Part shown: one piece after another, positions 2,851-62,251 of the stretch
Position numbering within the stretch: position 1 is the first letter of the stretch
How the letters are laid out: every line of letters begins with the position of its first letter
IMG/VR virus record: IMGVR_UViG_3300022602_000076
Location: 7,721 to 71,720 of that record
DNA: 64,000 nucleotides
Reading direction: 5' to 3' (one strand)
From: a virus
Notes under the pieces: model-generated
Database searches by the model: none
Seen by the model: the letters and a program-made list of their open reading frames with translations, nothing else
Told to the model about the DNA's origin: nothing
Program-made: the position numbers and the translations under genes

Positions 2851-5418
2851 TTATTCGTTGGTCCATTCCACTATGGAGCTATAGGAATTTACCCATACCA
2901 CAGTGTTAGCTGAATTATTTATCCAGCTAACATAGCTGGGATCGGTCACAATTGTCCGCAACGGACCTGTGTTGATAATGTTGCGTTTGGGGAACAACAG
3001 ATACTTGTCATAGACTTGAGTATTGGTATACATGTCAACTGGTGCAATAAACTGTAGACTATTGCCGTCAAATGTGGTTGGTTGTCCGTTGTAGTTGCTT
3101 TGCCATCCTACTATTTCAGCATCATCATTGACCCATTGTACAGGGCTATGCGAGTTATTGACCCATCGATCAAACATACCAGTGCCGCCTTGATCAAATC
3201 TTGTGTACTCAGGTGGTTGTGGTACCCAGTGCTCCTCGCCTGCGTCCCAATTATGACTCAACAATCTGTCTAGTTCATAACGGTCAGCTTGATAATCAAT
3301 GAGATTCAATCGTTCGCCATAGGCCTGTTTGATGTTGTAGGCAATTTGCCCGCTTTGATTTGGCAATGTATAACAGATCACCCAAGCAGGTGTAAATCCC
3401 AGGGTTTGACCATTGGATTGTTTTGATACCATCCATTGCGGTAAAATATTGCTGACCTGCCCCACAGTGTCAATGACTTGTGTGCGCATGTCTTGCAGAC
3501 TATTAGGATAAACCACTTGAACTTCCTCGCCATTAGCCATCACCGGAAACGCTAGGTCTACTTGTTTGCTGACACTTTCACCATGGTTGTTGACAAGATT
3601 GTCAATGATTCTACTGTACACAATTTCGTAGAGAATATTTCCGTTTGAATCCAGAGCCTGCGCAGTTTCAATACTGCCCAAGGTTAGATTTTTCCAATAG
3701 TGATTTAGATTCAAACTGTCAACATAGGCATCAAGAGTGGCATCAGTCAATCCATAGGCATTGTAGTATTTTATATTTGTTGCCACACCAAAATTTGGAT
3801 CGTTGTAACGATAAATCAATGCAGGATTAAACACTGTGGTGTCTTGCAAGAAAGTAGATATAAAGTTTCTATTATTCTGCGGGGGCATTGCCTGTATGTA
3901 AAGATTGTCATAGGGCTCGTTGTACACGCGATTTACTGTTATAGTAAATGTTTTGCTGACATTGACAACACCATTGTTGCTGTAGGCATTGACTGTGAAT
4001 GTGTTTACTAGGTCAAATGTTGTGGGCTGATGTATACCTGTTCTAGGATCTGTGTACACATTGTAGTGAGGATTTACAGTGACATCAAAAGTGGTCTTGC
4101 CTTCGTCCAGTGCAAAGGTATCAAAACTCACATGTCCTGCTATTTCGCCTGATGGTAATAATTGCAAACCTTGAGGTAATTTACTGTTGCTGCCAGACAG
4201 TAGTTGATACTGTAATGATAAACCGTAACTGTTAACTGCGGCAACATAAAAAGTACTCACTGCACCATTGTTGATAGTACCCAAATCACTGTCAACCAAC
4301 CATGTGATATCACTGCTGATTGGTCCAATAACAGTTAAACTATACGAATAAGGATTGCTTATAACATCTTCGTATTCTGCTTTGTATACTCTAACATTGA
4401 ATGGATAAGATGACTCTATCAATCCTAGATTTGGAATGTATCCATACAACCATCCAGAGTTGGGATCAAGTGTCAGTCCTGGTGGGGTTGTATTGGCAAC
4501 AAATTTTATTTGATCGCCATCAAAGTCCACTGCTTGGATTTGGAACGCAAAGAAATTGTCATTGCGTACTGTGCCAATTGATCCAGTGGGTGTGGTGATA
4601 ACTGGAATACGCTGAGGACTTACATCTGCAGTTACAAATGTATTGTCGGCAGTGAGATAAGCATTGTCAGCCGTCATTGAGTTTCGACTATACACAAGAA
4701 TACTAAATGTTCTTAGGTTATTAGCCACACCATTGCTGACACGCAGAGTAAATTCATATGTGACATTGGTACTTTGTGTGTCAAAGTCAAATCCATATTC
4801 ATCAAATCCTTGAAAGTCTCTGCTGTATCCAGGTATTGCATTTGTTCCTGTGTTGGGATATATCAAGCCAGAAATAACTCCATCGGGTGCTATAGATAAT
4901 CCTGGAGGTAAAGATCCTGCTGCCAAGGTCACAACTGCTTTGGCGTAGATATCAGGATCAAAAGTTTCAATCTGAAGATCTGTTACTTGTGAACCATCAA
5001 AATAGGTGGCAATCTGTCCTGCTGGTGTTATAAATTCCGGAGTATTTTGTCCAGTTACTGTGATACTGAATGTTCTGTCGGCCAGTCGATTTACCACAGT
5101 TATTCCATTCACAGTCTTTTCTGTGTAGGCTCTCACTGCAAATTGACTGGTAGTGTCAGCTGGTACTGGGTAAGGCACGCCTTGGATTGTTGTAGTTTGT
5201 AAGGTAGGAGATGCAAACAACAAAGATTGAGGTGTTCCTGCAAGAATTCCGTCTTCGTTGATCTGTATGCCATTGGGCAGTTGACCAGCAATGACTTTGA
5301 AATAAACAGTATCAACATCATCAGGATCGTATGCCACCAAAGGAATAGAATAAAATACTCCTTCGGGTATTGTTCCCAATGTGCCTGGTGGTGTTTCCCA
5401 AACTGGTTGTGCTGACAT
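2851..5418 (-). CDS. Putative Ig-repeat (He_PIG-like) baseplate/virion protein
   Basis: Repeated GxLPxGLxLxxxGxIxG modules (GQLPNGIQINEDG, GSLPPGLSIAPDG, KLPQGLQLLPSG). Confidence 0.75.
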   Translation of the reverse strand: MSAQPVWETPPGTLGTIPEGVFYSIPLVAYDPDDVDTVYFKVIAGQLPNGIQINEDGILAGTPQSLLFASPTLQTTTIQGVPYPVPADTTSQFAVRAYTEKTVNGITVVNRLADRTFSITVTGQNTPEFITPAGQIATYFDGSQVTDLQIETFDPDIYAKAVVTLAAGSLPPGLSIAPDGVISGLIYPNTGTNAIPGYSRDFQGFDEYGFDFDTQSTNVTYEFTLRVSNGVANNLRTFSILVYSRNSMTADNAYLTADNTFVTADVSPQRIPVITTPTGSIGTVRNDNFFAFQIQAVDFDGDQIKFVANTTPPGLTLDPNSGWLYGYIPNLGLIESSYPFNVRVYKAEYEDVISNPYSYSLTVIGPISSDITWLVDSDLGTINNGAVSTFYVAAVNSYGLSLQYQLLSGSNSKLPQGLQLLPSGEIAGHVSFDTFALDEGKTTFDVTVNPHYNVYTDPRTGIHQPTTFDLVNTFTVNAYSNNGVVNVSKTFTITVNRVYNEPYDNLYIQAMPPQNNRNFISTFLQDTTVFNPALIYRYNDPNFGVATNIKYYNAYGLTDATLDAYVDSLNLNHYWKNLTLGSIETAQALDSNGNILYEIVYSRIIDNLVNNHGESVSKQVDLAFPVMANGEEVQVVYPNSLQDMRTQVIDTVGQVSNILPQWMVSKQSNGQTLGFTPAWVICYTLPNQSGQIAYNIKQAYGERLNLIDYQADRYELDRLLSHNWDAGEEHWVPQPPEYTRFDQGGTGMFDRWVNNSHSPVQWVNDDAEIVGWQSNYNGQPTTFDGNSLQFIAPVDMYTNTQVYDKYLLFPKRNIINTGPLRTIVTDPSYVSWINNSANTVVWVNSYSSIVEWTNE

Positions 5419-5423
5419 ATTAA

Positions 5424-7844
5424 TTAGACTCTTCCAACTACAATTTCTATTGTTCCAAAATCGCCATCAAAGGTTTCAAGTGCTTTGCCAATTATGGTAC
5501 CAGGCAATGGATGTTTTTCAGCTCTTGCTACTCCATTACCAGCAGACACCATTAACGAACCTTTTGATACAGGTCCTTGTACCTGACACGGAACCCTGCC
5601 GACCAATGCTACGGTTGTAACATACTCACCTTCCAATCCTGTATTCATGTTGTAGGCTGGGTTTGTAGAAACCACACCTGCCACTGCTGGATCCTGATCT
5701 GTGTCACAGAATGTGACTTCATTTGGTCCACCAAAACTCACAACAGTTCCAGGAACATAATATGCATCTCCAAGATAACATTCTGCCAAGTCAGCGTATT
5801 GTGCTGATGTTGCTTTGGCAAACACAGTATTGAAATATCTACTGTTGCTACCAATGTTACCAACTGCATTTGCACCACCGTTGACAATGGCAGTGGCAGC
5901 GTTACCACTGTTGACTGTGATAATACCTGGGGTTATCAAATTACCAACATTGGCATTGTTGGTCACAAACAAAGAATTGTTGGAAGCTATTCCACCAGTG
6001 ACAACCATTGTACCTGTTGTAGCAGTAGTTGACTGAGTGTTTGGCGCATTGATTTTGATAGCGACATCATTTTGTGTGCTGCCACCACTGATAATTCTTA
6101 TCTGAGATCCTGCATCTGGAGTACCAATAACCATGTCACTAGGATTGCCCCCGGCAACATTACCTACCACATACAAGTAAGCATCGTTGGGAGTCACTGA
6201 ATTGCCAAGTGCGTTATCTAATATGGCCACTGCTCCATTATAGGTACTGCCTGCAATACCCATGTCAAAGTAGTAGGTATTGTCGTCACCGTTGTTGGAT
6301 GTTAGGATGTAATCAGTTGTGGAAGTATTTCCAGCACTGATGTTTTGATTGTTGATCTGACTGTACCCATTGTAACTAGAAATATAGTTGACAACTGATT
6401 GTGGCAACAAGTTGAATCCAGATGGAAGACCCGCATACAATGCGTTGAAACCAGTGGATGCATTACCAAAGAACTGACCAGAGTTACCAGATACCTGGGT
6501 AATATTACCAGCAATTGTGGTGTTACCTGACACATACAGGTTACCAATCACTGCGTTACCTGTTGACATAGAAATACCACCAGGGGTGATATTACCACTC
6601 ACTGCCAAACTTGTCAGGGTACCCACCGCAGTAATACTGGTCTGACTACCGTTTGATAGTGTGCCAGAGATTGTGTTGCCAATGATATTGTTGGCAGTGA
6701 CATTGCCAGTGACGCTGACTGCAGCACCTGTGTGAATGTTGGCAGAAATATTTCCGCCTGAATTAATGTTACCTGCCAACAGTGTAGCATTGGTATAGAT
6801 ATTTCCGGCAGAAGTAATTATACCACCTGTGACAATATTACCGCCTATGACATTGCCAGTTGCAGTGACCAAGCCAGCAGTGTTAACATTACCACCTCTG
6901 ACATTGCCACCTGCACTGACTACACCAGCAGTAAGAATGTTGCTTGCAACAACATTGCCGCCAGCACTTACCAAAGCGCCAGTTAGTACATTACCACCTG
7001 TGATATTGCCAGTGGCAACAACTTGAGCACCAGTTGTTAGATTACCAGCAATTACATTTCCTTGTGAACTGATAATGCCTAACACAATAAATGTATTGGC
7101 ATCTTTGTTGTAGATCATACCACCAACGGCATCAGCGTTTCCATTGGTGTTGAACAATACTTCTGTGTTTGATCCTGGAACTGTAAAGTTACCTGTGATG
7201 TTACCCGCAAAGTCTCCAACAAAATATCCTGCGGTATAAATGTTACCTGTGGCAGAAACTGTTCCTTGTACATTGACATTACCCGATACATTAGCATCGC
7301 GTGTGATAGCAATATAATCACCAGCAATATTACCTGTGTACACTGGCAAGAAGTCACCAACATTGGCGTTTGAGTAAGTGGCTGGCAGCCCAGTTAAGAA
7401 TGCACCGTTACCCAAGAAATAGTTACTGGAGATATTGCCAATGGCACTGACTACACCTTTTATCGCAACTCCAGAACTGGAAAATACTGCTACATTGCTA
7501 GTACCATGAATACTGACATTTGCGTTGCCATTGATATCAGCAATTTGTATTGTACTGTTGCCGTTTTGAATCTGTGTTGCTGATACATTTCCCAGCGATG
7601 TAAGCTCGGCCCAAATAATGCTTGACCCGTCGTAGTTGGCAAAGCAATAGAAAAAATAACTAGAATTATAAGCATACATGCCGGCTTGGTCGCCAACACT
7701 ACCTACCAAAGTTGTGGGCGGATTTGTCTGCACACGACTGTATAATTGGCTGAAATTGTCGTTTGATTTGATAAAAGCCGTGCGTATAGGATCGCCCTGC
7801 CCGTCATTTGGTGCGGTTCCTACATTAATTATTTGTTGAGCCAT
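5424..7844 (-). CDS. Tail fibre with baseplate-anchor N-terminus and C-terminal intramolecular chaperone (peptidase G2/IMC-like)
   Basis: INVGTAPNDGQGDPIRTAF anchor; GNVxGGN repeats; AQYADLAE...VGRVPCQV...IIGKAL C-terminus; TAAATA upstream. Confidence 0.8.
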   Translation of the reverse strand: MAQQIINVGTAPNDGQGDPIRTAFIKSNDNFSQLYSRVQTNPPTTLVGSVGDQAGMYAYNSSYFFYCFANYDGSSIIWAELTSLGNVSATQIQNGNSTIQIADINGNANVSIHGTSNVAVFSSSGVAIKGVVSAIGNISSNYFLGNGAFLTGLPATYSNANVGDFLPVYTGNIAGDYIAITRDANVSGNVNVQGTVSATGNIYTAGYFVGDFAGNITGNFTVPGSNTEVLFNTNGNADAVGGMIYNKDANTFIVLGIISSQGNVIAGNLTTGAQVVATGNITGGNVLTGALVSAGGNVVASNILTAGVVSAGGNVRGGNVNTAGLVTATGNVIGGNIVTGGIITSAGNIYTNATLLAGNINSGGNISANIHTGAAVSVTGNVTANNIIGNTISGTLSNGSQTSITAVGTLTSLAVSGNITPGGISMSTGNAVIGNLYVSGNTTIAGNITQVSGNSGQFFGNASTGFNALYAGLPSGFNLLPQSVVNYISSYNGYSQINNQNISAGNTSTTDYILTSNNGDDNTYYFDMGIAGSTYNGAVAILDNALGNSVTPNDAYLYVVGNVAGGNPSDMVIGTPDAGSQIRIISGGSTQNDVAIKINAPNTQSTTATTGTMVVTGGIASNNSLFVTNNANVGNLITPGIITVNSGNAATAIVNGGANAVGNIGSNSRYFNTVFAKATSAQYADLAECYLGDAYYVPGTVVSFGGPNEVTFCDTDQDPAVAGVVSTNPAYNMNTGLEGEYVTTVALVGRVPCQVQGPVSKGSLMVSAGNGVARAEKHPLPGTIIGKALETFDGDFGTIEIVVGRV

Positions 7845-42279: not shown

Positions 42280-43343
42280 CCAAACAATAGTCCTTGATTT
42301 TTCAGGGTTTCTATTGCAGTATCCACACTATTTTGCCAGTTGAATTGGGTTCTAATAACCTTACTGTTTTTAAGGGCATTTTCAGTTAACATCTCAGTGT
42401 TGTCTTTACACAACACCATGGCTTCTGCTAGATTATCTACATCAGGCATAGCCCATTGTCCCCAATTGTTGTCAGGTTCTGGGTAGTGTGATTGATATAT
42501 CGGACATTGAATTGGTCCCAATTGGTAATCCACAGGAACAACACTATTGGTAATGTGTTGCAGATATTCTGTGTGTCCACTGTAATTGGTTGTGATGATT
42601 GGTAGTCCAGATGCCGCTGCCTCTATTATGGGTAGTCCCCAAGCTTCACCTTTGGTAGGAGCCAACAATGCATCGCACACAGTGTATAAATGTTGCATAT
42701 AATCAACGGCTCCAACAACCACATGTATGTTGGTCAATCCAAGGTCTGAAACTTTTTGCTCAAACTCAGCCATTGAATCATCTTCACTGACTAGGTGTGT
42801 TTTGAATACTAGTTCCACTTCAGGACTATTGTTCCAAGCCCGAGCAAACGCATCGAGTACTTCAGACCAACTTTTTCTTTGTTCATATTTGCCCACAAAC
42901 AAAAATCTATATGGTCGGTGTTGTTTGGGTCTGGACCAGATATTGTATGCTGAAGGATCTACTCCTTCAGGTACAACATGAATTTTGTCAGGCGAGATTC
43001 CGTTGGCAACTAGAACTCTATTGCCCCACGCACTGGGTACCCATACACTGTCAGCATGTTCTAGGTTGGGCATGATTTTGCTAGGGATTTTGTCGCTTTC
43101 AAACACAATCCATTGTATGTTATGCCCACGAAACAGTTCATGTATGTTGCCAGATACAAAACTTATGTTGACATCATCAGGTGCACTAGTTTGTATAGCA
43201 TGTTCGACTATCTGCTGATTTGTAAAATCAACCTCGTCTACCAAATGCCCTATCCCTATGTATTGGCGGATAGCATCGCAAAATGCACTGTAATGAATGC
43301 CAACACCTAGGTTATTGCGTTGACCAATTAATCTAATTCTCAT
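42276..43343 (-). CDS. GT4-family glycosyltransferase
   Basis: [11 protein letters not shown]; [22 protein letters not shown]. Confidence 0.88.
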
Positions 43344-43936
43344 GCTGTACGGTTGGTAATAATTTCATCAACAAGCCCAAAATCCAGAGCTTCTTGAGCA
43401 CTCATGTAATTATCTCGTTCCATAGCTGAATAAAATTCTTCAAATGTTTTGCCCTTTGAATTATGATTGACATAAATTTGTGTGAGATTCTTTTTCATTG
43501 CAAGAATCTCTTCAACTTGAATTAACATGTCTGTGGCTTGTCCACGGGCACCACCTGAAGGCTGATGAATCATGTGACGAGCGTTTGGTAGAATTTTGCG
43601 TTTGCCAGCAGCCCCAGCAGTGGCGAGTAAACTACCCATGCTGCAAGCCTGTCCCATAACGATGGTTTGTACATCTGGCTTGACGAACTGCATAGTGTCG
43701 TAAATTGCCATGCCAGCGGTAACAACACCGCCAGGGCTATTAATATAAAAGAGAATGTCTGCATCTGGATTTTCACTTTCTAAAAATAACATTTGTGCTA
43801 CAATTAAACTAGCAGAATGCTCGTTTACATCTGTGTCTAAAATAACAATACGATCTTTGAGTAATCTACTGTAAATATCGTAACTTCGTTCGCCTTTTGA
43901 AGTTTGTTCTACCACAATTGGTACTAAGTTTGGCAT
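43340..43936 (-). CDS. clpP: ATP-dependent Clp protease proteolytic subunit
   Basis: [16 protein letters not shown]; YINSPGG; QACSMG; MIHQPSGG. Confidence 0.97.
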
Positions 43937-43987
43937 AGGGTCTCCTGGTTGAAAGCATAAGTATAACATATTCCTTGGAAAAATACA

Positions 43988-45547
43988 ATGCGTGACCTAC
44001 TCGATTTGATAGATAATTTAGAAGAAAGTCGTGGACTCAGTGCCCGACAACCTGGTGAAGTTTATAACCGCGGACCAAATGCTGATGACCAAATCACATT
44101 TCAGGGCCTGACTTTCTACCCAGAAGTTGGTGCATACCCAGATGTACAACAAATGTTGGCGGCATTTGCTCAGGTGCAAGAACAAGTTGGACGAGAAATT
44201 GAGCAGGTTAACCGTCCCAACGCAAGAACACGAGCATTTGGTATTGCAGCTTTTGATACCGCAGTGGGCCCTAGATATTTGGTAAAATTTGCCGAAGAAA
44301 TCAAACCAGTAAGAACACAAAATACATTTTTTCAAACCAAAGATATACCCGGCGGATTCAGCCAGAGCGATGCAAGAGGTAGCAAAGAAAAAGTTGGCTA
44401 CAAGCCCAGCGATGTGCTGACAGATTTTAAAAGTCAAACTCCTGAAAGCATCTTGGCACAAATTGCTGCCAAGTTTGGTGAGAACTCTGATGAGTATCGT
44501 GCTGCGGTTATTATCACTTCCACTGATAGATTTCCTGTGAGCGTGCCTGCTGGTAAGATGGATTTTGCTGGCTTCCGTGATTACTTTTGCGAAATGCTAC
44601 AACCTATCATATTGATCCGTGGTATTCCAGTCAAAGGCAATGCTGCCAAGGCTGCAGAAATCTTCATGGGACAAGATGGCTTTGCTGGTTCTGTAGTCAG
44701 CTTCAATCAAAATGTCAGTGGCGGCTTGTACGATAGTTTGTTGGTCAGCCCCAAAGGCAAACAAATCAAACTCAGTAGCAAAGGCGCCAAAGGTGCAATG
44801 GCATCCAGTATAAACTTGTTGACTGCGGTACGAGAGCTAGAAGCTGCTGGCATGACTCAGTTCCGTGAACAGTATGCTGATGTGATTGAAATCTTAGAAA
44901 CCATTGACAAAGGAGATCACAACTCCGGTCCATTGGCTTTGGCAGTAGAACAAGGTTTGATTACTCCTGCTGAAGTACAAGAAGTAATGAGCTTGAAACA
45001 ATATGCCGGTGCCAAAGACTTTGACATTGATAAAACCAATGTCAGCAAAAATCTAAAAAAGATCTATCACGATCGCAAAGCAGAAGATCCCAGCAAGATA
45101 GTGCCGCTGAATCACATGGTGTCTAGTATTGCCTACAAGGTAGTAAACTATATCAATATGAACACCAACTTCAGCGATGCGGCAGCAGATATTTTAAATA
45201 ACTCTGCGTTTGTGCAAATGTACACTGAAGCTAAAAATGCCAAAACAGAATTTATCATACAGGGATTCAATACTGTATGGCCCAGCAAGCTGTTTACTGA
45301 AGTTACGCTGGAAGCACAAAAGAGCTATTCAAGCACATCAAGCTCCAGTGGCAAGTTGGTGTTCAATATCAACAAAGAACCCAAGGTTGAACCCAATGTA
45401 GAGAAAACTGCCACAACAGGCAATCAAGATAAGAGCAAAGCCGGAGAGTTGGTTGATTACATTCCGCCTCGTAGCGATGTCAAAGCCTACAAAGAACCGG
45501 AAAAGTTTGGATCAGAGAAGACTCTGGGACGCAAGCGTCAGAAGTAA
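43988..45547 (+). CDS. Hypothetical protein, probable head-packaged/virion protein
   Basis: 519 aa; [14 protein letters not shown] leader; isolated plus-strand gene. Confidence 0.6.
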
Positions 45548-46123
45548 TTACTTCTTGAGATCACTCACATAATCGCAAATACCCAGTTCTAGTGCTTCTT
45601 TAGAACTCAGCCAAACATCTTGTGGCGGTAGCAAATACTGTCGTATTTTTTCATCATCAAGCCCAGTTGAGTCACGGTACAAATCCAACATACGCTGAAA
45701 TGTCAGCTCGTATTCTTTTACTTGAGCAAACAATTCATGTGCTTTGCCATCACTGCCCCAACTGTACTGATGACTTAGTATGCTGGTGTTGGGAGTAAGA
45801 ACTCTGCGACCTTTGGCTCCGGCAATGAATATACACAATCCAGCACTGGCAATTTGTCCTAGCCCTATTGTTTTGACTGGTATGGTGCTGGCGTTCATTA
45901 CATCAATCAATGCAAATGCACTTTGAAGATCGCCGCCTTCACTGCAGACCATTAACAATAATTCTTTTTTCTTTTTCTTGACCACATGATTTTCAACCAA
46001 GATCCATTCAATTATGGGTTTTATGGATTCGTTGTCTACTGAATCCATAAACACATACATACCTGTATCATTCAATAATTGCGAATGATCGTTGTTATTG
46101 ATATCGGAATCTTGTACGGCCAT
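45548..46123 (-). CDS. Second, divergent ClpP-like peptidase
   Basis: CSEGGD, GLGQIASAG, ILSHQYS, WLSSKEALELGICD. Confidence 0.85.
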   Translation of the reverse strand: MAVQDSDINNNDHSQLLNDTGMYVFMDSVDNESIKPIIEWILVENHVVKKKKKELLLMVCSEGGDLQSAFALIDVMNASTIPVKTIGLGQIASAGLCIFIAGAKGRRVLTPNTSILSHQYSWGSDGKAHELFAQVKEYELTFQRMLDLYRDSTGLDDEKIRQYLLPPQDVWLSSKEALELGICDYVSDLKK

Positions 46124-46187
46124 ATTAGTTAGATGAGTTAATATATAAATTATAGCATGCTATAATGGGTCTACAAGTACTTATGGC

Positions 46188-46218
46188 AAAAAAAATCCAG
46201 TATCGAAATACTGGATTT
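46188..46218 (-). terminator. Intrinsic terminator after phasin-like gene
   Basis: AAATCCAGTAT-TTCG-ATACTGGATTTTTTTTT. Confidence 0.85.
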
Positions 46219-46237
46219 GGTCAATGATTACTCATTA

Positions 46238-46501
46238 TTATTTTTTGCTTGTTTTTGGTGCAAATGCTTCAAACATTTTGGTATAATCAAATTTACCAGC
46301 AGTCTGAGCAAATTTTGTGACTTCTTCAACCAAAGTAGTCATTGTATCAGTGCCCAATTTAACAGTTTTTTTAGAGTATTCAGCGTTGGTATCAACCAAT
46401 TTGTTTAATGTATCTGCTATTGCTTCGTGTTGTACGAAAGTTTTAACCAGATTTTTTTGACCAACTTGAATAGTATCGATAGTAGTATCTAATGCGAACA
46501 T
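46238..46501 (-). CDS. Phasin-like (PHA granule-associated) protein
   Basis: Helical 87 aa, IDTIQVGQKNLVKTFV..EAIADTLNKLVD pattern; PhaR-like box upstream. Confidence 0.55.
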   Translation of the reverse strand: MFALDTTIDTIQVGQKNLVKTFVQHEAIADTLNKLVDTNAEYSKKTVKLGTDTMTTLVEEVTKFAQTAGKFDYTKMFEAFAPKTSKK

Positions 46502-46560
46502 TTTATTTTCCTTTATTAAGCGAAATGTTTATCAAGACCCGCCCTATGCAGCGCCTTGTA
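46502..46560 (-). promoter_or_regulatory. ROSE-like 5' leader
   Basis: Hairpin CAAGGC-GCTGC..GCGG-GTCTTG, then TTTCGCTT-AATA-AAGGAAA pairing over the SD. Confidence 0.55.
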
Positions 46561-46584
46561 CTATATTATATATGATAATTATCG

Positions 46585-46596
46585 TGCAATGCAACA
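46585..46596. promoter_or_regulatory. PhaR-like box over the -35 region
   Basis: TGCAATGCAACA resembles TGC-N3-GCA PhaR sites. Confidence 0.5.
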
Positions 46597-46631
46597 AATA
46601 TTTCTAGTGAATGGTCACTAATTTTTGAGAC

Positions 46632-46657
46632 AAAAAAAGCCGGTAATACCGGCTTTT
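46632..46657 (-). terminator. Intrinsic terminator
   Basis: AAAGCCGGT-ATT-ACCGGCTTTTTTT. Confidence 0.85.
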
Positions 46658-46670
46658 GACACAATCCTGA

Positions 46671-47372
46671 TTATAGCGGACCGTATGCATCTTCAACCAA
46701 TTGGCGAGCCTCAGCAACTGCTTTGGTACCAGCGCAACTGATACGATACAACTCTTTGCGCATTTTGCCAACCAACTCAGTGGCGTGTGCTTGTGCTTCG
46801 GGTGTATCACACAATTGTTCTAGTTTCCATGCACCAATCTTGCTGTGGAATGTTTCGTCCTTGGCAATTTTAGCGTAGCGTGAACTGATAAAATCGTCTT
46901 GGATGGTTTCAGCCATTTGACGCCATACTGCTCCAGCACGACCTTCTGCACACATTTGGTACAATGCTAATGCAATTGGGTCATCATGACAGTTGAATTC
47001 ATTGATCAGACTAGCACCTTTGTTTTTGACGCGAGTTTCCCAGCTGTCAGTGGCAGCTTGTAGATCTACTTCTTCACCTGTGAGATGTTCAATTACTTCT
47101 TTGACCATGCGATAATGCTTGGCTTCATCAAGAGCTTGTTTACTCAAAAGATGTAGTTCTTCCACGCTGGTATCTGCTGGCATTTCTGAAATTGCTTTAG
47201 AAATTTCCACTAGATTCATACGCTCGTTTACCATACGACCTGTGAAGTGATCGATCAATTCATCCTTGGATAAATCGCTTTCGAAGTAAGCCTTGACTTG
47301 CATAGCACTGGCTTGAAATAATGCTTGGTTATTGTTTGCTATGTTAGCTACAAATTCTTTTGCGTTTTGCAT
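46671..47372 (-). CDS. Ferritin-like diiron protein
   Basis: E...DEAKH...E...DETFH four-helix-bundle ligand pattern. Confidence 0.75.
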   Translation of the reverse strand: MQNAKEFVANIANNNQALFQASAMQVKAYFESDLSKDELIDHFTGRMVNERMNLVEISKAISEMPADTSVEELHLLSKQALDEAKHYRMVKEVIEHLTGEEVDLQAATDSWETRVKNKGASLINEFNCHDDPIALALYQMCAEGRAGAVWRQMAETIQDDFISSRYAKIAKDETFHSKIGAWKLEQLCDTPEAQAHATELVGKMRKELYRISCAGTKAVAEARQLVEDAYGPL

Positions 47373-47485
47373 AAGATTTCCTGTTAAAAGTTATAAATTA
47401 AGATGTGTTGGTAACACATCTTGACCGGTGCTCAACACCGGTAATTTAGTGTTGACACAATTATTAACTTTTCGCATCAGACAAT

Positions 47486-48199
47486 TTATTTATCTAGTCT
47501 TTTTACTTTAATTAAATTTAGAAAACTAAAAATTCGTATCCACATCCAACCTATGTCAAACTCAAACCAGCGACGACTTAGTTTGGGATTAGCAGGCTCT
47601 ATGTGATGATTGTTGTGTAGTTCTTCGCCGCCAATTATGATGCCCCATGGAACTAAATTGTGGCTGTTGTCTCTGGTTTCACCGTTGCGATATCCACACC
47701 AATGGGCTAGACCATTGATCACACCTGCGGCCCAGAATGGGATCCATAGCATCTGGACCAACCAAATTAAAAATCCACAACCGCCAAATACTGCCACATC
47801 AACGATCAACATCAACAATATACCTAGTCGACTGTGTGCAGAGTATAAGTTTTGTTCGATCCAATCGTTTGGAGTACCTAGCCCGTATTTTTCTATTGTG
47901 CTGGCATTTTTGGATTCTTTGTGATACAAAAAAGCACCGCCAAACAGCACATGCCAAATCCCGTAGTATACAGGACTGTGTGGGTCTTTAAAACGATCAG
48001 AATTTACATGATGTTTGCGGTGGATTGCTACCCATTGACGAGTAACCATGCCTGTTGTTAACCACAGCCAAAAGCGTATAAAGTGTTCTAAAATAGGGTG
48101 AAACTCAAGACTTCTATGAGCCATCCCGCGGTGTAGATAAAGTGTAACACATACTATAGTAATATGTGTCATCACTAAGGTAGCGATAATTTCATTCAT
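47486..48199 (-). CDS. Membrane fatty acid (delta-9 type) desaturase
   Basis: His boxes HRGMAH, HRKHH, GEELHNNHH; EFDIGW. Confidence 0.92.
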   Translation of the reverse strand: MNEIIATLVMTHITIVCVTLYLHRGMAHRSLEFHPILEHFIRFWLWLTTGMVTRQWVAIHRKHHVNSDRFKDPHSPVYYGIWHVLFGGAFLYHKESKNASTIEKYGLGTPNDWIEQNLYSAHSRLGILLMLIVDVAVFGGCGFLIWLVQMLWIPFWAAGVINGLAHWCGYRNGETRDNSHNLVPWGIIIGGEELHNNHHIEPANPKLSRRWFEFDIGWMWIRIFSFLNLIKVKRLDK

Positions 48200-48215
48200 T
48201 ATCACTATTTATGAG

Positions 48216-48545
48216 TCAAGCAGCTTCGGCAAGATCTAAAACTTGATCCTCGATGTATTCTTCTACAACCAGATCATTGTCGTTGGCAAAGTTCAATACA
48301 AACTCAAATGCCAGTATTTCAATGTCTTTTAATCTAGAATCGAGCACTACTGATTTTATACCATTGGAAAAAGTAGGCATGATGTAAGTGGAGTAACCTT
48401 GCATTTTATGCGTGTGTTCAGCCACAACACTCACAGGCTTGGTGCCAGGGCGATAGTGTGCCAGCATTGAGCAAAGACGATCCGACCAGTCACTCGGACG
48501 GAACACTGATCCTGATTTAGTTAAACCTTTGATTAGATATTTCAT
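48216..48545 (-). CDS. DUF3579-family protein
   Basis: IKGLTKSGSVFRPSDWSDRLC...AFEFVLNFANDNDL. Confidence 0.8.
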   Translation of the reverse strand: MKYLIKGLTKSGSVFRPSDWSDRLCSMLAHYRPGTKPVSVVAEHTHKMQGYSTYIMPTFSNGIKSVVLDSRLKDIEILAFEFVLNFANDNDLVVEEYIEDQVLDLAEAA

Positions 48546-48546
48546 A

Positions 48547-49101
48547 TTATACAAATGCAACTAGTTTGGGTATTCTTTTACCCAAATAGTCAACTACTCC
48601 TAAGTTATTGTCAGTGGCTTCGTGCATATAGGTACTGAGATCTGGACGGTCAAATTGAATTTTGGCCAATGTTTCGCCTCGATCATTTTGCATACTAATT
48701 CCGTATTTGTTACACAAGTGTCTAATAACTGAATTAGCACTCAAACACACCATACATCCACTGAGAATGTTGTGTGTTCTACACCACTGAATGCATCGTT
48801 GCATCAGTAGGTTGCCCAGGCCTTGTCCTTGATACTCGTCAAGCACACTAAAAGCCAATTCCATTTCACCTTCTAGGGCAATATGCCCAATGGCAACAAA
48901 TTCTAGATCATTGTTTTCTACACAAAAAAGAATATGTTTTGTGTGATTGAGTTCAAACCGGTCGCACAACTGATTGATTATTGTGTCAGTTGCTGGATAC
49001 CCAAATCTCAAAATTTTAGATTCAGCATCTAACTGTTTGAGATGATGCCTGTATTTCACATACTCATGCGGTAACACTCGGCGAACTGTTTGAAGTGGCA
49101 T
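48547..49101 (-). CDS. GNAT acetyltransferase
   Basis: ELAFSVLDEYQGQGLGNLLM. Confidence 0.85.
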   Translation of the reverse strand: MPLQTVRRVLPHEYVKYRHHLKQLDAESKILRFGYPATDTIINQLCDRFELNHTKHILFCVENNDLEFVAIGHIALEGEMELAFSVLDEYQGQGLGNLLMQRCIQWCRTHNILSGCMVCLSANSVIRHLCNKYGISMQNDRGETLAKIQFDRPDLSTYMHEATDNNLGVVDYLGKRIPKLVAFV

Positions 49102-49105
49102 GCAG

Positions 49106-49207
49106 TTACTTTGTTAATTCTAAATAGATAATAATAGCTGCAATTGCAAGCATCGCAAATCTAGGACCGTATTCACGATCTTCCCAGGTTTTGATCAATT
49201 CTGCCAT
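49106..49207 (-). CDS. Small membrane peptide, 33 aa (not in ORF track)
   Basis: MAELIKTWEDREYGPRFAMLAIAAIIIYL... Confidence 0.5.
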   Translation of the reverse strand: MAELIKTWEDREYGPRFAMLAIAAIIIYLELTK

Positions 49208-49209
49208 GA

Positions 49210-49314
49210 TTATTTTCCGTGATTAAATCCGTTGACCATTTGCTCTGCTCTTGCTTTACGAGCTTCAACAATTGCTTCTGCAAGGGTTTTAAAAAATTTT
49301 TTAATTGAATTCAT
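49210..49314 (-). CDS. Small amphipathic peptide, 34 aa (not in ORF track)
   Basis: MNSIKKFFKTLAEAIVEARKARA... Confidence 0.55.
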   Translation of the reverse strand: MNSIKKFFKTLAEAIVEARKARAEQMVNGFNHGK

Positions 49315-49324
49315 GATGATTCCG

Positions 49325-49420
49325 TTATGTTAATAAAATGGTCAATGTTAGCCCGGCCAATAATACACCTGTTGTATAAACAAGAAATTGAATAATTGCT
49401 TTGAAAAGTTCGTCGTCCAT
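49325..49420 (-). CDS. Small membrane peptide, 31 aa (not in ORF track)
   Basis: GGAG RBS; TGATG coupling. Confidence 0.5.
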   Translation of the reverse strand: MDDELFKAIIQFLVYTTGVLLAGLTLTILLT

Positions 49421-49575
49421 CACAACTCCCTTGCGTACAGTTGTCTATTGTACTGGTTTAACCAAAATTCTACCTCTGCAGTGTTGGTTGGCTTTTTGCT
49501 ATTGATAAATTGTTCTAGATCGCTAGAATGTTTAATTTTAAAAAACTCTGTAAGTTTTTGTGCTATTTTTGTCAT
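49420..49575 (-). CDS. DUF3563-like small protein, 51 aa (not in ORF track)
   Basis: DLEQFINSKKPTNTAEVEFWLNQY; AAGGAG RBS. Confidence 0.55.
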   Translation of the reverse strand: MTKIAQKLTEFFKIKHSSDLEQFINSKKPTNTAEVEFWLNQYNRQLYAREL

Positions 49576-49642
49576 TTTGTGACTCCTTTAAATGTTAGTG
49601 TTTACACTGATATTTATCTCTCAGTGTTTCTACTGATATACA

Positions 49643-49671
49643 ATTATATTGCAATCGAACATAACTGTCAA
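49643..49671 (-). promoter_or_regulatory. sigma70-type promoter with a degenerate PhaR-like box in the spacer
   Basis: TTGACA-N17-TATAAT; TGCAATCGAACA at 49650..49661. Confidence 0.8.
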
Positions 49672-49724
49672 ATAATAACTGTGTAATACTATTTTGAGTA
49701 AATAAAAAACAAAGGAGATAGCAA

Positions 49725-50084
49725 ATGCTACTAGATTTTTTAAAGAAATATTTGTCAATTAAACCAAAACAAATTCCAGAACAAGCATCAGAGGCACCAT
49801 ATAAAGTTGAGGCTCCTACAAGTGCACAGGCTGTAAAACCACCAGTGAGTTGCGGATGCGGTCGTAGTCCAAGTGGATTATGCGAAGGATATCATGCGTT
49901 GACTGCTGAACAATGGGCTGCCAGCGATAAAAATTCCAACAGGGTTGCTGAGACAGTGGTCAAAGAAGTTGCTCCCGCAAAGCCTGCGCCTGCTAAGAAG
50001 AAACCTGCAGCAAAAAAAGCACCAGCCAAGCCGCCAGCTGAAAAGAAACCTCGTGCTCCAAGAAAGCCCAAAGCTTCAGCTTAA
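49725..50084 (+). CDS. CDGSH-like iron-sulfur protein with Lys/Ala/Pro tail
   Basis: CGCGRSPSGLCEGYH; TAAATA and AAGGAG upstream. Confidence 0.7.
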   Translation: MLLDFLKKYLSIKPKQIPEQASEAPYKVEAPTSAQAVKPPVSCGCGRSPSGLCEGYHALTAEQWAASDKNSNRVAETVVKEVAPAKPAPAKKKPAAKKAPAKPPAEKKPRAPRKPKASA

Positions 50085-50363
50085 CATTCGTATCAGTCCA
50101 ACTGTGTCTATGCTTACCAGCAAGATATAGTTGGCCAACATACCAAAAGATCTGCGGGTCCAACTTGCCCAAGCGTACATCGCACATCCACTGATCCATA
50201 CAGGATACATAAACAACAGTGGAGGGTTAGGCACAGTGATTGCCATAGTCAAACTACACCCAACTGAAATAGCCCAGGCAAATACTTCTACTGAAAATCG
50301 AAACGGGTGTGTTCGATAGTCTTCCTGTATCCATCGAAATATCCCAAATAATATATCATTCAT
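50076..50363 (-). CDS. Small multi-pass membrane protein
   Basis: Three hydrophobic segments. Confidence 0.7.
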   Translation of the reverse strand: MNDILFGIFRWIQEDYRTHPFRFSVEVFAWAISVGCSLTMAITVPNPPLLFMYPVWISGCAMYAWASWTRRSFGMLANYILLVSIDTVGLIRMLS

Positions 50364-54732: not shown

Positions 54733-56007
54733 ATGAGTATTCCATTAGATCAATTATACAACTATATCAGTGACATAGCAACAGAAATGTTTGGTGAGAC
54801 TATAGTAATTTATCGTTTTTACCCGCACGGTTCTAAAAAACTTGAAGATCTTCAAGAGATAAAATGGCACAACTGGATTGAATTAAACTTAGCACCTACT
54901 CTTTTTTGCAATGACCAAGAGCCTTTGAACTTTGACTATTACCAATCTCATATACTGGCACCAAAAAAACAAAATCTATTTGCTGATATTATAAAATCCA
55001 CTGGACTAAATCATTTAAAAAACAACATCAAAAGAAAGCAGAATATCTACGATCAATCAGTGTTGTTGCACAGTGAACAAAGATCCATTGATGTTGAAAA
55101 ATATCAACAAAATAAATTCATCACAGTGTATTACTGGAATCATGCATTTCTGTCCTTGGATTGGTTTAGATATGCCAACCATGTTACCATAAAGAAAAAT
55201 CCATGTAAAAAGTTTTTGATTTATAACAGAGCATGGGCTGGCACCAGAGAGTATAGATTGAAATTTGCCGATCTACTTGTTGCATCTGGCATTGACTCTC
55301 ATTGTGCTACATCAATTGCTCTGGATGGATACCGGGAGCACGAATTTGCCAATCCAGTATGGAAGCCAGCAAGAGAATTGGAAAACTATTTTCAAAACAA
55401 TACCACGCCAAGTACATTTAGCGCCGACTTCACAGCAGAAGATTATGCCGCAACCGACATCGAAGTTGTGCTAGAAACACTGTTTGATGACTCACGCTTG
55501 CACCTAACTGAAAAAGCACTTAGGCCCATTGCCATGGCACAACCGTTTATACTGGCTGCCACACACGGCAGTTTAGAATATCTGCGCAGTTATGGATTCA
55601 AAACTTTTAGCAGTGTCTGGGATGAAAGCTATGACCAAATAGTGGATCCAAAACAAAGACTTGATGCCATAGTTAGTTTAATGAAATCAATTTCAACTTG
55701 GGATCCTTTGACCCGCGATATTAAATTAGCACAAGCCAACGCTGTTGCTGAATATAATCGACAACATTTTTTCAGCCAAGAATTCGAAGACACTATCGTT
55801 GCTGAACTAAAAACAAATTTAAACAGTGCAGTTAATGAATTCAATTCAACAAAAACCACGGATAAGTGGGTCAACTGGTGGGACAATGCGTTAACACATG
55901 AATCTATCCAAAATTTCTTAACAACCAACACTGACCCAAAAATGCCCACTAAACCTGTGTTTGATGTTGTTTATGAAAAAGCAAAAAATATGTTGACTAC
56001 TCCGTAG
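54733..56007 (+). CDS. Glycosyltransferase-like protein, paralog of 14293..15375
   Basis: VVLET...HLTEKALRPI...LRSYGFKTF..WDESYD; TAAATA upstream. Confidence 0.6.
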   Translation: MSIPLDQLYNYISDIATEMFGETIVIYRFYPHGSKKLEDLQEIKWHNWIELNLAPTLFCNDQEPLNFDYYQSHILAPKKQNLFADIIKSTGLNHLKNNIKRKQNIYDQSVLLHSEQRSIDVEKYQQNKFITVYYWNHAFLSLDWFRYANHVTIKKNPCKKFLIYNRAWAGTREYRLKFADLLVASGIDSHCATSIALDGYREHEFANPVWKPARELENYFQNNTTPSTFSADFTAEDYAATDIEVVLETLFDDSRLHLTEKALRPIAMAQPFILAATHGSLEYLRSYGFKTFSSVWDESYDQIVDPKQRLDAIVSLMKSISTWDPLTRDIKLAQANAVAEYNRQHFFSQEFEDTIVAELKTNLNSAVNEFNSTKTTDKWVNWWDNALTHESIQNFLTTNTDPKMPTKPVFDVVYEKAKNMLTTP

Positions 56008-56026: not shown

Positions 56027-56052
56027 CTTATTTGACATTACAAGGAGATAAA

Positions 56053-60827: not shown

Positions 60828-61049
60828 TTAGAACAACTTCTTGGGCAAGGCCTGAGATGCCACTTGTTTTTGCCAGCGATTTTTGGCTGCAGATTTACGG
60901 CGTTTTCTTGCAGTTGTGGGTTTTTCAAAAAATTCGCGATCTCTGAGATCATTGAGCAATCCAGATTCAACAATTTTTTTCTTGAATTTGCGTAGAGCCT
61001 TGTCTACATTACCGTCTTTAACAATTACTGTGCGACCGTATAATTTCAT
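60828..61049 (-). CDS. rpsU: 30S ribosomal protein bS21
   Basis: NVDKALRKFKKK...REFFEKPTTARKRRK. Confidence 0.93.
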   Translation of the reverse strand: MKLYGRTVIVKDGNVDKALRKFKKKIVESGLLNDLRDREFFEKPTTARKRRKSAAKNRWQKQVASQALPKKLF

Positions 61050-62251
61050 AGGTTTTCTTGTGCTAGTGTCATAGGAGTATTTACCTGCTCTTTTCCTATA
61101 ACTACCTTTAGAATGTTTTGTTTGCGATATCTTGGCAAATCAAACATATGCGGCAACAACACACGCTCTAGTTCTGTGTGCAGGCCTCTAGCACCTGTTT
61201 TTGTGTGTAATGTGCGTTCAGCTATTAGATCCAAGCTTTCTGCATCAAATTCCAAGTTAACACCATCTTGATCAAACAACCATTGGTATTGTCCAACAAA
61301 ATTGTTTTTTATTTCCGTCAATATGTTTATCAATTGCGATTTTGTCAATGCTTGTAAGCTCACATAACTTGAAAATCTGCCCACAAACTCTGGGATCATT
61401 CCGTAGCGTACTAGATCATCTGGAGTGATTGATTCATTTTCAACAATGCTGGTACTGCTGAATTTAGCACCAAAACCCATGGCAGTACCTTGTATGCGAT
61501 TTTTTACAATATTCTCTAAGCCAACAAACGCACCGCCTGCAATGAACAAAATGTTGCTGGTGTCAATTTCAACCATTTCTCCAGTGGACATTTTTCTATT
61601 GCCACTGACTGGGATTTTGCACTTGGTGCCTTCGACCAGTTTCAACAATGCTTGTTGTACACCTTCGCCAGAAACATCTCTGCTGACTGTGGCACTTTCG
61701 CCCTTGCGAGCAATCTTGTCAATTTCATCCAAGAATATGATACCACGCTGACATTGTTCTACATTTCCATTGGCCGCCAAAAATAATCGTGCGACAAGAC
61801 TTTCAACATCATCACCAACATAACCTGCTTCGGTCAGTGTTGTGGCATCTGCTACCACAAACGGCACATCCAAGTACTTGGCTACTGTGCGAGCCATTAG
61901 AGTTTTGCCAGTGCCAGTTGGGCCTATCATCAAGATATTGGCTTTTTGTATTTCTTTGGCAGGATCTGTGTTGTTTATTCTTTTGTAGTGATTGGCAATG
62001 GCCACACTCAGCACTATCTTGGCTGCGTCTTGACCAATCACATGAGAATTCAAAAAGTCTCTAATTTCTCTAGGATCTGGCAGCACTGTGTTTTCAGACT
62101 TGGGCACAGGATCTTTTTTTCTGTCCTTGAGCAGTGATCCACATAGGTCCACACAAGCATCGCAGATTGCAGCATCGTGTCCCACAATGAGTTTGATAAC
62201 TTGATCTTTGTGCTTGGAACAAAAACTGCAATGACTGATGGTGTTGCTCAT
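61046..62251 (-). CDS. clpX: ATP-dependent Clp protease ATPase ClpX
   Basis: C4 zinc finger; GPTGTGKT; TEAGYVG; DEIDK; RDVSGEGVQQALLK; TGARGL. Confidence 0.97.
   Translation of the reverse strand: MSNTISHCSFCSKHKDQVIKLIVGHDAAICDACVDLCGSLLKDRKKDPVPKSENTVLPDPREIRDFLNSHVIGQDAAKIVLSVAIANHYKRINNTDPAKEIQKANILMIGPTGTGKTLMARTVAKYLDVPFVVADATTLTEAGYVGDDVESLVARLFLAANGNVEQCQRGIIFLDEIDKIARKGESATVSRDVSGEGVQQALLKLVEGTKCKIPVSGNRKMSTGEMVEIDTSNILFIAGGAFVGLENIVKNRIQGTAMGFGAKFSSTSIVENESITPDDLVRYGMIPEFVGRFSSYVSLQALTKSQLINILTEIKNNFVGQYQWLFDQDGVNLEFDAESLDLIAERTLHTKTGARGLHTELERVLLPHMFDLPRYRKQNILKVVIGKEQVNTPMTLAQENL

Follow-up and report, generated by a model that had tools for sequence, protein, structure and literature searches.

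The locus described here raises the question of whether a phage gene can be placed under the regulator with which its host governs the storage of carbon. In a stretch of viral DNA of 64,000 nucleotides (nt), hereafter the window (positions 7,721 to 71,720 of IMG/VR virus record IMGVR_UViG_3300022602_000076), a first-pass annotation had singled out positions 46238-49671 as a polyhydroxyalkanoate (PHA) granule and lipid island, governed through two near-identical boxes by PhaR, the repressor of phasin genes. The answer at which we arrive is narrower: we lean towards the reading that one gene of this region, encoding a protein of 87 amino acids (aa), is a stand-alone unit controlled by the PhaR of the host, and that its product acts as a phasin analogue at polyhydroxybutyrate (PHB) granules. 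The record is 71.7 kilobases (kb) long and estimated to be 21% complete; because its relatives are contigs of 338-349 kb, one of them with direct terminal repeats and rated 100% complete, we take the record, and with it the window, to be part of a jumbo-phage genome of about 340 kb, and the PHROG matches in it (tail-fibre and virion proteins) agree with a phage origin.

The 87-aa gene and the elements around it are as follows.

46193..46218, minus strand: intrinsic terminator after the 87-aa gene, an 11-pair stem and then a T run.
46238..46501, minus strand: open reading frame (ORF) of the 87-aa, all-helical amphipathic protein, a conserved jumbo-phage family here called phasin-like.
46533..46558, minus strand: conserved stem-loop in the 5' untranslated region (RNAalifold on 18 orthologous leaders: 8 pairs, 3 with compensatory changes).
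46565..46570, minus strand: -10 hexamer TATAAT of the 87-aa gene, kept in orthologues as TATAAT or TACAAT.
46582..46596, no strand assigned: predicted PhaR-type operator, TGTTGC-ATT-GCACGA on the gene strand, with the TGC-N3-GCA core intact and 2 mismatches to TGYTGCNNNGCARCA.
46605..46620, no strand assigned: second palindrome, TAGTGA-N4-TCACTA, centred at about -55; a single exact match in the window.
46635..46657, minus strand: terminator after the gene of a diiron protein, a 10-pair stem with 5 GC pairs, separating that gene from the 87-aa promoter.

Both 12-mers that had been pointed out are present where they were said to be, the first over the -35 region of the 87-aa gene and the other in the promoter spacer of an operon further upstream. 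The first, TGCAATGCAACA (46585-46596, plus strand), is contained in the 15-bp box at 46582-46596, which lies 11 nt upstream of TATAAT (46570 to 46565 on the gene strand) and covers the -35 position. Compared with the motif TG[N]TGC[N]3GCAA of PhbF, the PhaR of Herbaspirillum seropedicae, the box agrees at 9 of the 10 specified positions (GCAC for GCAA). The gene behind it is predicted to be a monocistronic unit with its own terminator, because an intrinsic terminator (46218 to 46193) directly follows it. Its leader is conserved also between the stem-loop and the Shine-Dalgarno sequence, where a AAACTCGCTTAA stretch is kept; the stem-loop itself (46533-46558), for which no matching Rfam family was found, may serve to stabilise the mRNA.

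The evidence that carries our reading comes from relatives of the phage. With single family members as queries, 63 viral loci encoding the 87-aa protein were collected, and lining up the upstream regions of the orthologues yielded the consensus palindrome TGYTGC-N3-GCARCA. When 49 distinct orthologous promoters were compared with 2000 random 140-nt windows from the same loci, TGYTGCNNNGCARCA was matched perfectly in 20 promoters, with one mismatch in 5 and with two in 8 (33 of 49 at 0-2 mismatches), as against 0, 5 and 41 of the random windows (46 of 2000); the TGC-N3-GCA core is present in 32 of the 49 promoters and in 3.65% of the random windows. The expectation of the first-pass annotation that the box would prove conserved upstream of orthologues was thereby borne out. 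In the 33 box-bearing promoters TGC and GC are invariant and the central base is A in 4, C in 13, G in 12 and T in 4, with the reservation that likeness to the consensus was the criterion for picking these promoters, so that agreement at the specified positions is overstated. Apart from two close relatives at 80-84%, the orthologues are 26-52% identical in protein, and since the box is kept across such diverged phages while its central 3 bp vary, we predict that it is a real, selected operator of the PhaR type.

The placement of the box is instructive as well. It lies over the -35 in most promoters and in the spacer after TTGACT in two (L016, L030); six further loci (L051-L053, L055, L057, L058) have two copies, one in the spacer and the other immediately behind the -10. 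Where the box is absent, a canonical TTGAYT -35 takes its place (L012, L031, L033, L034 and similar loci, at about 4880-4960; 18 nt from TATAAT), and part of the lineage appears to express the 87-aa gene without control by the box. In the three near-complete genomes (G001, G002 and G003) the perfect palindrome occurs once per genome, each time at the 87-aa promoter, on which ground a general phage promoter element was rejected. Sites with one mismatch number 24 in all; among the 13 for which loci were available, 10 fall within ORFs of at least 80 aa, and L075 alone has its site in a recognisable promoter. Because the box shifts relative to the core promoter and the perfect palindrome occurs once per genome, it is best regarded as a gene-specific site of the repressor type and not as a recognition element of the polymerase.

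Why the site should be assigned to PhaR can be seen from the promoters of host phasins. The 200 nt upstream of 36 Burkholderiales phasin genes (Pfam Phasin_2 above cut-off) were scanned with the phage-derived 15-mer, the genomes having been reached through similarity to the desaturase of the phage and through a further sample of the order; one gene (L193 of genome G035) was excluded from the set, while the tally of 36 out of 61 genomes with a phasin match includes G035. Perfect matches were present upstream of 11 of the 36 genes, matches with one mismatch upstream of 8 and with two upstream of 12 (31 of 36 at 0-2 mismatches), compared with 3, 0 and 50 of 878 control windows, and the TGC-N3-GCA core stands upstream of 35 of the 36. 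Some phage and host boxes are identical letter for letter, e.g., TGTTGCACTGCAACA in L201 and L047/L050, and the GCAC.A right arm of the box in the window is found again at phasin promoters of Paraburkholderia xenovorans (L162) and Noviherbaspirillum (L168) genomes.

The biochemistry described in the literature fits this assignment. As far as the excerpted text of the H. seropedicae study goes (PMC3206438), PhbF is 83% identical to PhaR of Ralstonia eutropha, binds eleven promoters related to PHB, represses phaP1 and protects a region in which TG[N]TGC[N]3GCAA lies; the same excerpt, citing work in Rhodobacter sphaeroides, describes the TGC and GCA triplets as essential for binding of PhaR. The consensus TGYTGC-N3-GCARCA of the orthologous phage promoters fits the footprinted motif fully. 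In Sinorhizobium meliloti, according to an excerpt of PMC12542648, PhaR palindromes flank the -35 or follow the -10, and point mutations in them abolish binding. Alphaproteobacterial PhaR sites are similar, so the motif alone does not fix the class of the host; the desaturase and the DUF3579 protein of the phage point to Burkholderiales.

The regulator is most likely that of the host, because no PhaR is detectable in the phage records: the N-terminal domain of PhaR (PF07879), the only domain sought for this purpose, was found in none of five records (that of the window and those of four relatives, themselves 95-100% complete). That host PhaR controls the 87-aa gene is the best reading of these comparisons, and to this extent the proposal that the phage senses its host through PhaR stands for this gene; it does not extend to the second box and its operon, as discussed below.

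At the same promoter, the second palindrome follows a distribution of its own. TAGTGA-N4-TCACTA occurs once in G001, at the same promoter as in the window, and in 20 of the 49 orthologous promoters (11 together with the PhaR-type box and 9 alone), independently of that box, whereas none of the 40 host phasin loci scanned contains it. A CRP-like reading of it was dropped, as the spacing differs from the CRP consensus.

What the gene encodes is a small protein of a widespread family, for which a search of 1.84 billion library proteins gave 163 representatives at E ≤ 0.001, the 150 members listed being 42-161 aa long. Ten clusters of the family were looked up; they have metagenome sources only and no informative name, and the contigs that bear some of them reach 343 kb. 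The AlphaFold2 model consists of three helices (residues 2-22, 26-70 and 73-80; predicted local distance difference test, pLDDT, 86), and the mean hydrophobic moment of 0.34, compared with 0.20 in shuffled sequences, was reached by none of 1000 shuffles; host phasins have a mean of 0.28, and an amphipathic helical architecture of this kind is not confined to phasins. Among the weak Pfam matches of the family Phasin_2 is the most frequent (9 of 90 members at E ≤ 0.01, the best at 1.2e-4), and the neighbours proposed by a language model, to be taken as leads only, include Phasin_2 (0.87), PHB_acc (0.84) and PHA_synth_III_E (0.82). Foldseek with the 87-aa model against the PDB gave nothing at E ≤ 0.001 and only generic helices, and a profile of the sequence against PDB chains retrieved only designed helical proteins and a colicin. 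Comparison of the phage family with host phasins by hhalign and hmmsearch gave no support for homology, and membership of Phasin_2 is not shown. Phasins are a heterogeneous group, whose amphipathic helices bind PHA non-specifically (PMC5658603). We predict that the 87-aa protein is likely a functional analogue of a phasin, because amphipathic helices coincide with regulation of the PhaR type and a set-up for high expression; of the label phasin-like, the helices and the regulation can thus be retained, and the family relationship cannot, as Phasin_2 stays below threshold and the profile comparison below its reversed control.

A second phage gene stands in a recurrent relation to the first.

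49725..50084, plus strand: 119-aa protein whose tail resembles histone H1 and is rich in lysine, alanine and proline (K/A/P-rich), with the motif CGCGRSxxGxCxGxH; often found next to the 87-aa gene.

When ORFs were classed strictly by composition, 14 of 48 distinct loci had a K/A/P-rich one no more than 1.2 kb from the 87-aa gene, compared with 3 of 684 ORFs elsewhere, and in distant lineages such an ORF is placed either divergently upstream or directly downstream. No Pfam match was found for the tailed protein. Its conserved motif, CGCGRSxxGxCxGxH-L-(S/T)-x-x-(E/Q)-W, with three cysteines and one histidine, is present in the window and also in L060 (5379-5774), and presumably resembles the CDGSH iron-sulfur motif minus one residue; the copy in G004 has a putative N-terminal membrane helix.

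Put together, these elements suggest the following mechanism. The 87-aa gene would be strongly expressed by the RNA polymerase of the host, given its TATAAT, structured leader, strong Shine-Dalgarno sequence and own terminator. In a host without free PHB surface, host PhaR would sit on the 15-bp palindrome at the -35 and block the promoter, and in a host that makes or holds PHB granules PhaR would be drawn to the polymer and the phage gene would be switched on. The small, abundant, amphipathic product would then most likely coat or remodel the surface of the granule, possibly together with the neighbour with the histone-like tail. Binding of PhaR, the direction of control and binding of granules by the 87-aa protein are the steps that we infer here. 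A more far-reaching version, which is possible but which we hold to be rather doubtful, is that a lineage of freshwater jumbo phages takes over the PHB granules (carbonosomes) of the host: a minimal phasin analogue and a separate K/A/P protein, together a split counterpart of PhaF/PhaM, would re-coat the granules, tethering to DNA or depolymerisation would follow, and stored carbon and reducing power would feed replication only in cells that hold PHB.

Several results weigh against the proposal of control by host PhaR and of a phasin analogue. The box in the window is imperfect, as its right half, GCACGA, departs from the consensus at 2 positions, and counts from the window alone put neither 12-mer above chance: TGCAATNNNACA has 2 matches where 2.69 are expected, the first 12-mer at up to two mismatches has 16 where 20.3 are expected, and the 15-mer consensus at up to two mismatches has 12 where 16.2 are expected. 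In 16 of the 49 orthologous promoters there is no box at up to two mismatches; therefore control is not universal in the lineage. The unexplained palindrome at 46605-46620 suggests that another factor is involved at the same promoter. On the side of the protein, the match to Phasin_2 (PF09361) amounts to 15.7 bits (E 0.017), below the gathering cut-off of 24.9, and at E ≤ 1 this model also finds matches in 10 of 14 control genomes, including Escherichia coli; hhalign gave P 0.067 against the 36 Burkholderiales phasins, the reversed control being better at 0.0063, and P 0.24 against 9 phasins, the reversed control again being better at 0.043. PHB depolymerase (PF10503) was not found in the phage records, and no wider PHA toolkit is visible in them.

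The second box belongs to an operon whose elements, together with the diiron gene that follows, are these.

49643..49671, minus strand: consensus sigma-70 promoter TTGACA-N17-TATAAT, 12 of 12 positions.
49647..49661, no strand assigned: spacer box of degenerate PhaR type, reading TGTTCG-ATT-GCAATA along the gene strand, with 3 mismatches and a broken core; the second 12-mer lies within it.
49420..49575, minus strand: 51-aa protein, first gene of the operon; orthologues in L005, L021, L038, L041, L043, L044 and L075.
49106..49423, minus strand: three small ORFs of 33, 34 and 32 aa, two of them read by eye as transmembrane.
48547..49101, minus strand: GNAT acetyltransferase (PF00583, 31.6 bits against a cut-off of 20.7).
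48216..48560, minus strand: DUF3579 protein (PF12112, 102.4 bits against a cut-off of 25).
47486..48205, minus strand: membrane fatty-acid desaturase of the DesA family (NF049918, 405.9 bits against 400, model positions 9-242 of 385).
46671..47372, minus strand: ferritin-like diiron-carboxylate protein of 233 aa, with invariant E / ExxH / E / ExxH.

The second 12-mer, TGCAATCGAACA (49650-49661, plus strand), lies in the 17-nt spacer of this promoter (49671 to 49643). It had been called near-identical to the first, a description that does not hold: on the plus strand the first box reads TGC-AAT-GCA and the second TGC-AAT-CGA, a swap of GC to CG that gives TCG-ATT-GCA on the gene strand, and as one arm of the inverted repeat is thereby lost, the two boxes are not equivalent. 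Three mismatches from the consensus is a level that 355 of the 2000 random windows reach. Among the orthologous operon promoters the best matches have 1 mismatch (L075/G002, TATTGCAACGCAACA), 1 (L044, TGTTGCAGGACAGCA) and 2 (L005), and the remaining ones have 4 with an intact core (L043), then 4, 5 and 5. Two one-mismatch sites in eight operon promoters is far above chance (random windows reach this level in 5 of 2000 cases). Part of the lineage probably has, or once had, an operator at the operon promoter; the second box of the window seems to have decayed from such a site, of which some relatives retain better copies, and the operon promoter in this phage is probably constitutive. The leader of the operon (49598-49634, minus strand) has features of its own, namely a GATAAATA element with a direct repeat on either side (AGTAGAAACAC and AGTGTAAACAC); ATAAATA-N-AGTAGAAAC is kept in most orthologous leaders seen, as an inverted pair in L041, and CGTAGAAACAC is found also near 56003 (plus strand), in the promoter region of the plus-strand gene at 56032. 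These leader repeats could be another phage-specific control element.

All genes at 46238-49671 are on the minus strand, and the order of transcription is the operon promoter, the 51-aa gene, the three small ORFs, GNAT, DUF3579, desaturase, hairpins, diiron gene and terminator (46657 to 46635), then the 87-aa unit with its separate promoter. The start of the desaturase (48205) is 10 nt past the stop of DUF3579 (48216), and the terminator-like sites nearest to this junction lie inside coding sequence (47950 to 47934 in the desaturase, 48499 to 48480 in DUF3579), for which reasons the desaturase is read as the last gene of the operon and not as a separate unit. Of the family labels given in the first pass, those of the GNAT, DUF3579 and desaturase genes are confirmed by the scores listed, and that of the ferritin-like diiron protein is supported by its six ligand residues, invariant in 19 homologues, and by its fold. 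The 51-aa protein, which had been called DUF3563-like, is not so supported, as none of five orthologues matches DUF3563 (PF12086) or any related Pfam family at E ≤ 10, and none was found in NCBIfam. For the 34-aa ORF there are tblastn matches in L021 and L043.

The eight histidines H25, H30, H62, H65, H66, H197, H200 and H201 of the desaturase (three histidine boxes) are invariant in 8 phage copies, and the protein is 58-63% identical to mostly Burkholderiales DesA. DUF3579 is present as a single copy in all 5 Burkholderiales genomes and in none of 14 controls, and in hosts it stands beside arginine-biosynthesis, rpsT and murJ genes; as a single query against viral contigs and genome contigs the DUF3579 protein returned no loci, and in the literature searched on DUF3579 and DUF3563 nothing was found. 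In the diiron protein the ligands E50, E83-x2-H86, E143 and E173-x2-H176 are the ones invariant in the 19 homologues, and the AlphaFold2 model (pLDDT 93) has a four-helix core. Its fold matches are weak (aldehyde-deformylating oxygenase, PaaA/C, UndA and CADD at E 0.009-0.07, none at E ≤ 0.001), and its Pfam and NCBIfam matches are all below threshold. The family counts 2236 homologues at E ≤ 0.001, on contigs of up to 363 kb, and is called rubrerythrin by one source; no precomputed Pfam domain is recorded for any of the 120 homologues listed.

Another explanation is that the palindrome serves as the binding site of a regulator encoded by the phage itself and not related to PhaR, its likeness to PhaR boxes being convergence, or mimicry without input from the host. 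Jumbo phages encode many proteins of no assigned function, a divergent DNA-binding protein would escape a search that covered PF07879 only, and the same promoter carries the phage-specific TAGTGA-N4-TCACTA that the scanned host phasin loci lack. We nevertheless consider this unlikely, since the same 15-mer stands at 31 of the 36 host phasin promoters, in some cases letter-identical, and since with one site per phage genome such a regulator would serve a single site. It is also conceivable that the site is mainly a sink, by which replicating genomes would titrate host PhaR and derepress the PHB regulon of the host, control of the 87-aa gene being secondary. The greater share of perfect palindromes in phages (20 of 49, compared with 11 of 36 host sites) and the two copies in L051-L053, L055, L057 and L058 would suit this; one or two sites per genome would however be a weak sink, and the site always overlaps one promoter, where a canonical -35 takes over if the box is lost, which points to control of the promoter, so that we regard the sink as very unlikely. 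A box that has no function and is left over from a host phasin promoter once captured by the phage, or one that matches by chance, would accord with the counts in the window alone, but half-sites that are kept while centre and flanks vary across orthologues 26-52% identical, the very large enrichment over random windows and the re-placement of the site within the promoter in different lineages make this highly improbable.

The original proposal in full, with both boxes as working PhaR sites and 46238-49671 as one PhaR-governed island for granules and lipids, has better boxes in some relatives on its side (one mismatch each in L075/G002 and L044, an intact core in L043), as well as the spacer position of the second box, a suitable place for the action of a repressor, and the adjoining genes, as the folds nearest to the diiron protein act on fatty acyl substrates and the desaturase is next to it. 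In the window, however, the core of the second box is TCG-N3-GCA, although the TGC and GCA triplets are those described as essential (PMC3206438, in the excerpt cited above), its 3 mismatches are common in random windows, and 3 of the 8 orthologous operon promoters have nothing (4-5 mismatches and no core). The gene content between the K/A/P-rich and the 87-aa genes varies by phage, no link to PHA emerged for the desaturase, diiron, GNAT or DUF3579 genes, and the neighbours of DUF3579 in hosts are of other kinds. A single island governed by PhaR is for these reasons quite unlikely, and control by host PhaR confined to the 87-aa unit remains the reading that we prefer.

Related loci keep one gene order, in which UvdE and a small membrane protein are followed by a variable stretch, then by the 87-aa gene, and finally by ClpP-like genes and a 519-aa gene; because of this stability the 87-aa gene appears to be conserved across the related contigs sampled and not to lie within a movable island, while it is the stretch between the K/A/P-rich gene and the 87-aa gene whose gene set differs from phage to phage. 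DNA nearly identical to that of the window occurs in freshwater and lake DNA metagenomes, with at least half of the sampled words in three among those listed, one of which may be the source sample, and no RNA dataset is among the sequencing runs listed with window-like DNA. Comparison of 45500-50200 and 46100-50200 with GenBank phages, in near and distant modes, gave no match; an Rfam scan of 45500-50300 gave only a sub-threshold sroD match, at a terminator, and PADLOC found nothing relevant. Elsewhere in the window, two ClpP-like proteins and a 401-aa protein are encoded at 45548-46123, 43340-43969 and 61046-62251; the latter has PHROG matches to ATP-dependent protease, ATPase and clamp-loader families (the top one, phrog_4339, being of no assigned function), and read as ClpX-like it suggests, with the ClpP-like pair, a phage-borne Clp protease system beyond a head-maturation protease. 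In the relative G001 (L008, 2620-4441), upstream of the K/A/P-rich gene, three minus-strand genes resemble by eye a curli set, namely a repeat-rich CsgA-like protein, a CsgG-like lipoprotein and a small CsgF-like protein.

PHB is a major store of carbon and energy in freshwater and soil bacteria, and the literature searched made no link between phages and the regulation of PHB; searches on phasin or PhaR together with phages yielded no phage-borne PhaR site in the titles and opening parts of abstracts among the matches listed. If our reading is true, phages respond to the storage state of the host in much the way that cyanophages sense phosphate stress by means of PhoB. The comparisons also delimit a phage protein family, widespread and as yet without a name, whose role can be tested, and the box could help to narrow host prediction for uncultured jumbo phages to bacteria that bear PhaR and store PHB.

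The closest known system is the phaP-PhaR (PhbF) circuit of Burkholderiales, with which the phage unit shares the operator (TG[N]TGC[N]3GCAA / TGYTGC-N3-GCARCA), its overlap with a sigma-70 promoter, and a regulated gene that encodes a small, abundant, amphipathic helical protein. It differs in that a jumbo-phage genome carries the gene but, as far as detectable, not the regulator, in the extra palindrome and conserved leader hairpin of the phage promoter, and in the size of the product, since the host phasins examined have 167-193 aa (one of them 120 aa) compared with 87 aa, and homology is not demonstrable. A likeness of another kind is offered by PhaF of Pseudomonas and PhaM of R. eutropha, which, according to PMC5658603, join an amphipathic, granule-binding part to a histone-like tail rich in lysine, alanine and proline. 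In many phage lineages a K/A/P-tailed gene accompanies the 87-aa gene, a likeness by composition only; the two are separate genes, without a fused form among the 150 listed members (the longest having 161 aa), and the tailed protein has its own Cys/His motif, unlike PhaF and PhaM. The use of a host nutrient regulator by a phage has a precedent in Synechococcus phage S-PM2d, a lytic phage with genes under the PhoBR regulator of its host, as reported in the excerpted text of PMC10976474, and the jumbo-phage version with PhaR did not turn up in the literature searched. There, phosphate is sensed through PhoB in another clade of hosts, whereas the case of PHB storage and PhaR presented here is known from the comparison of sequences alone.

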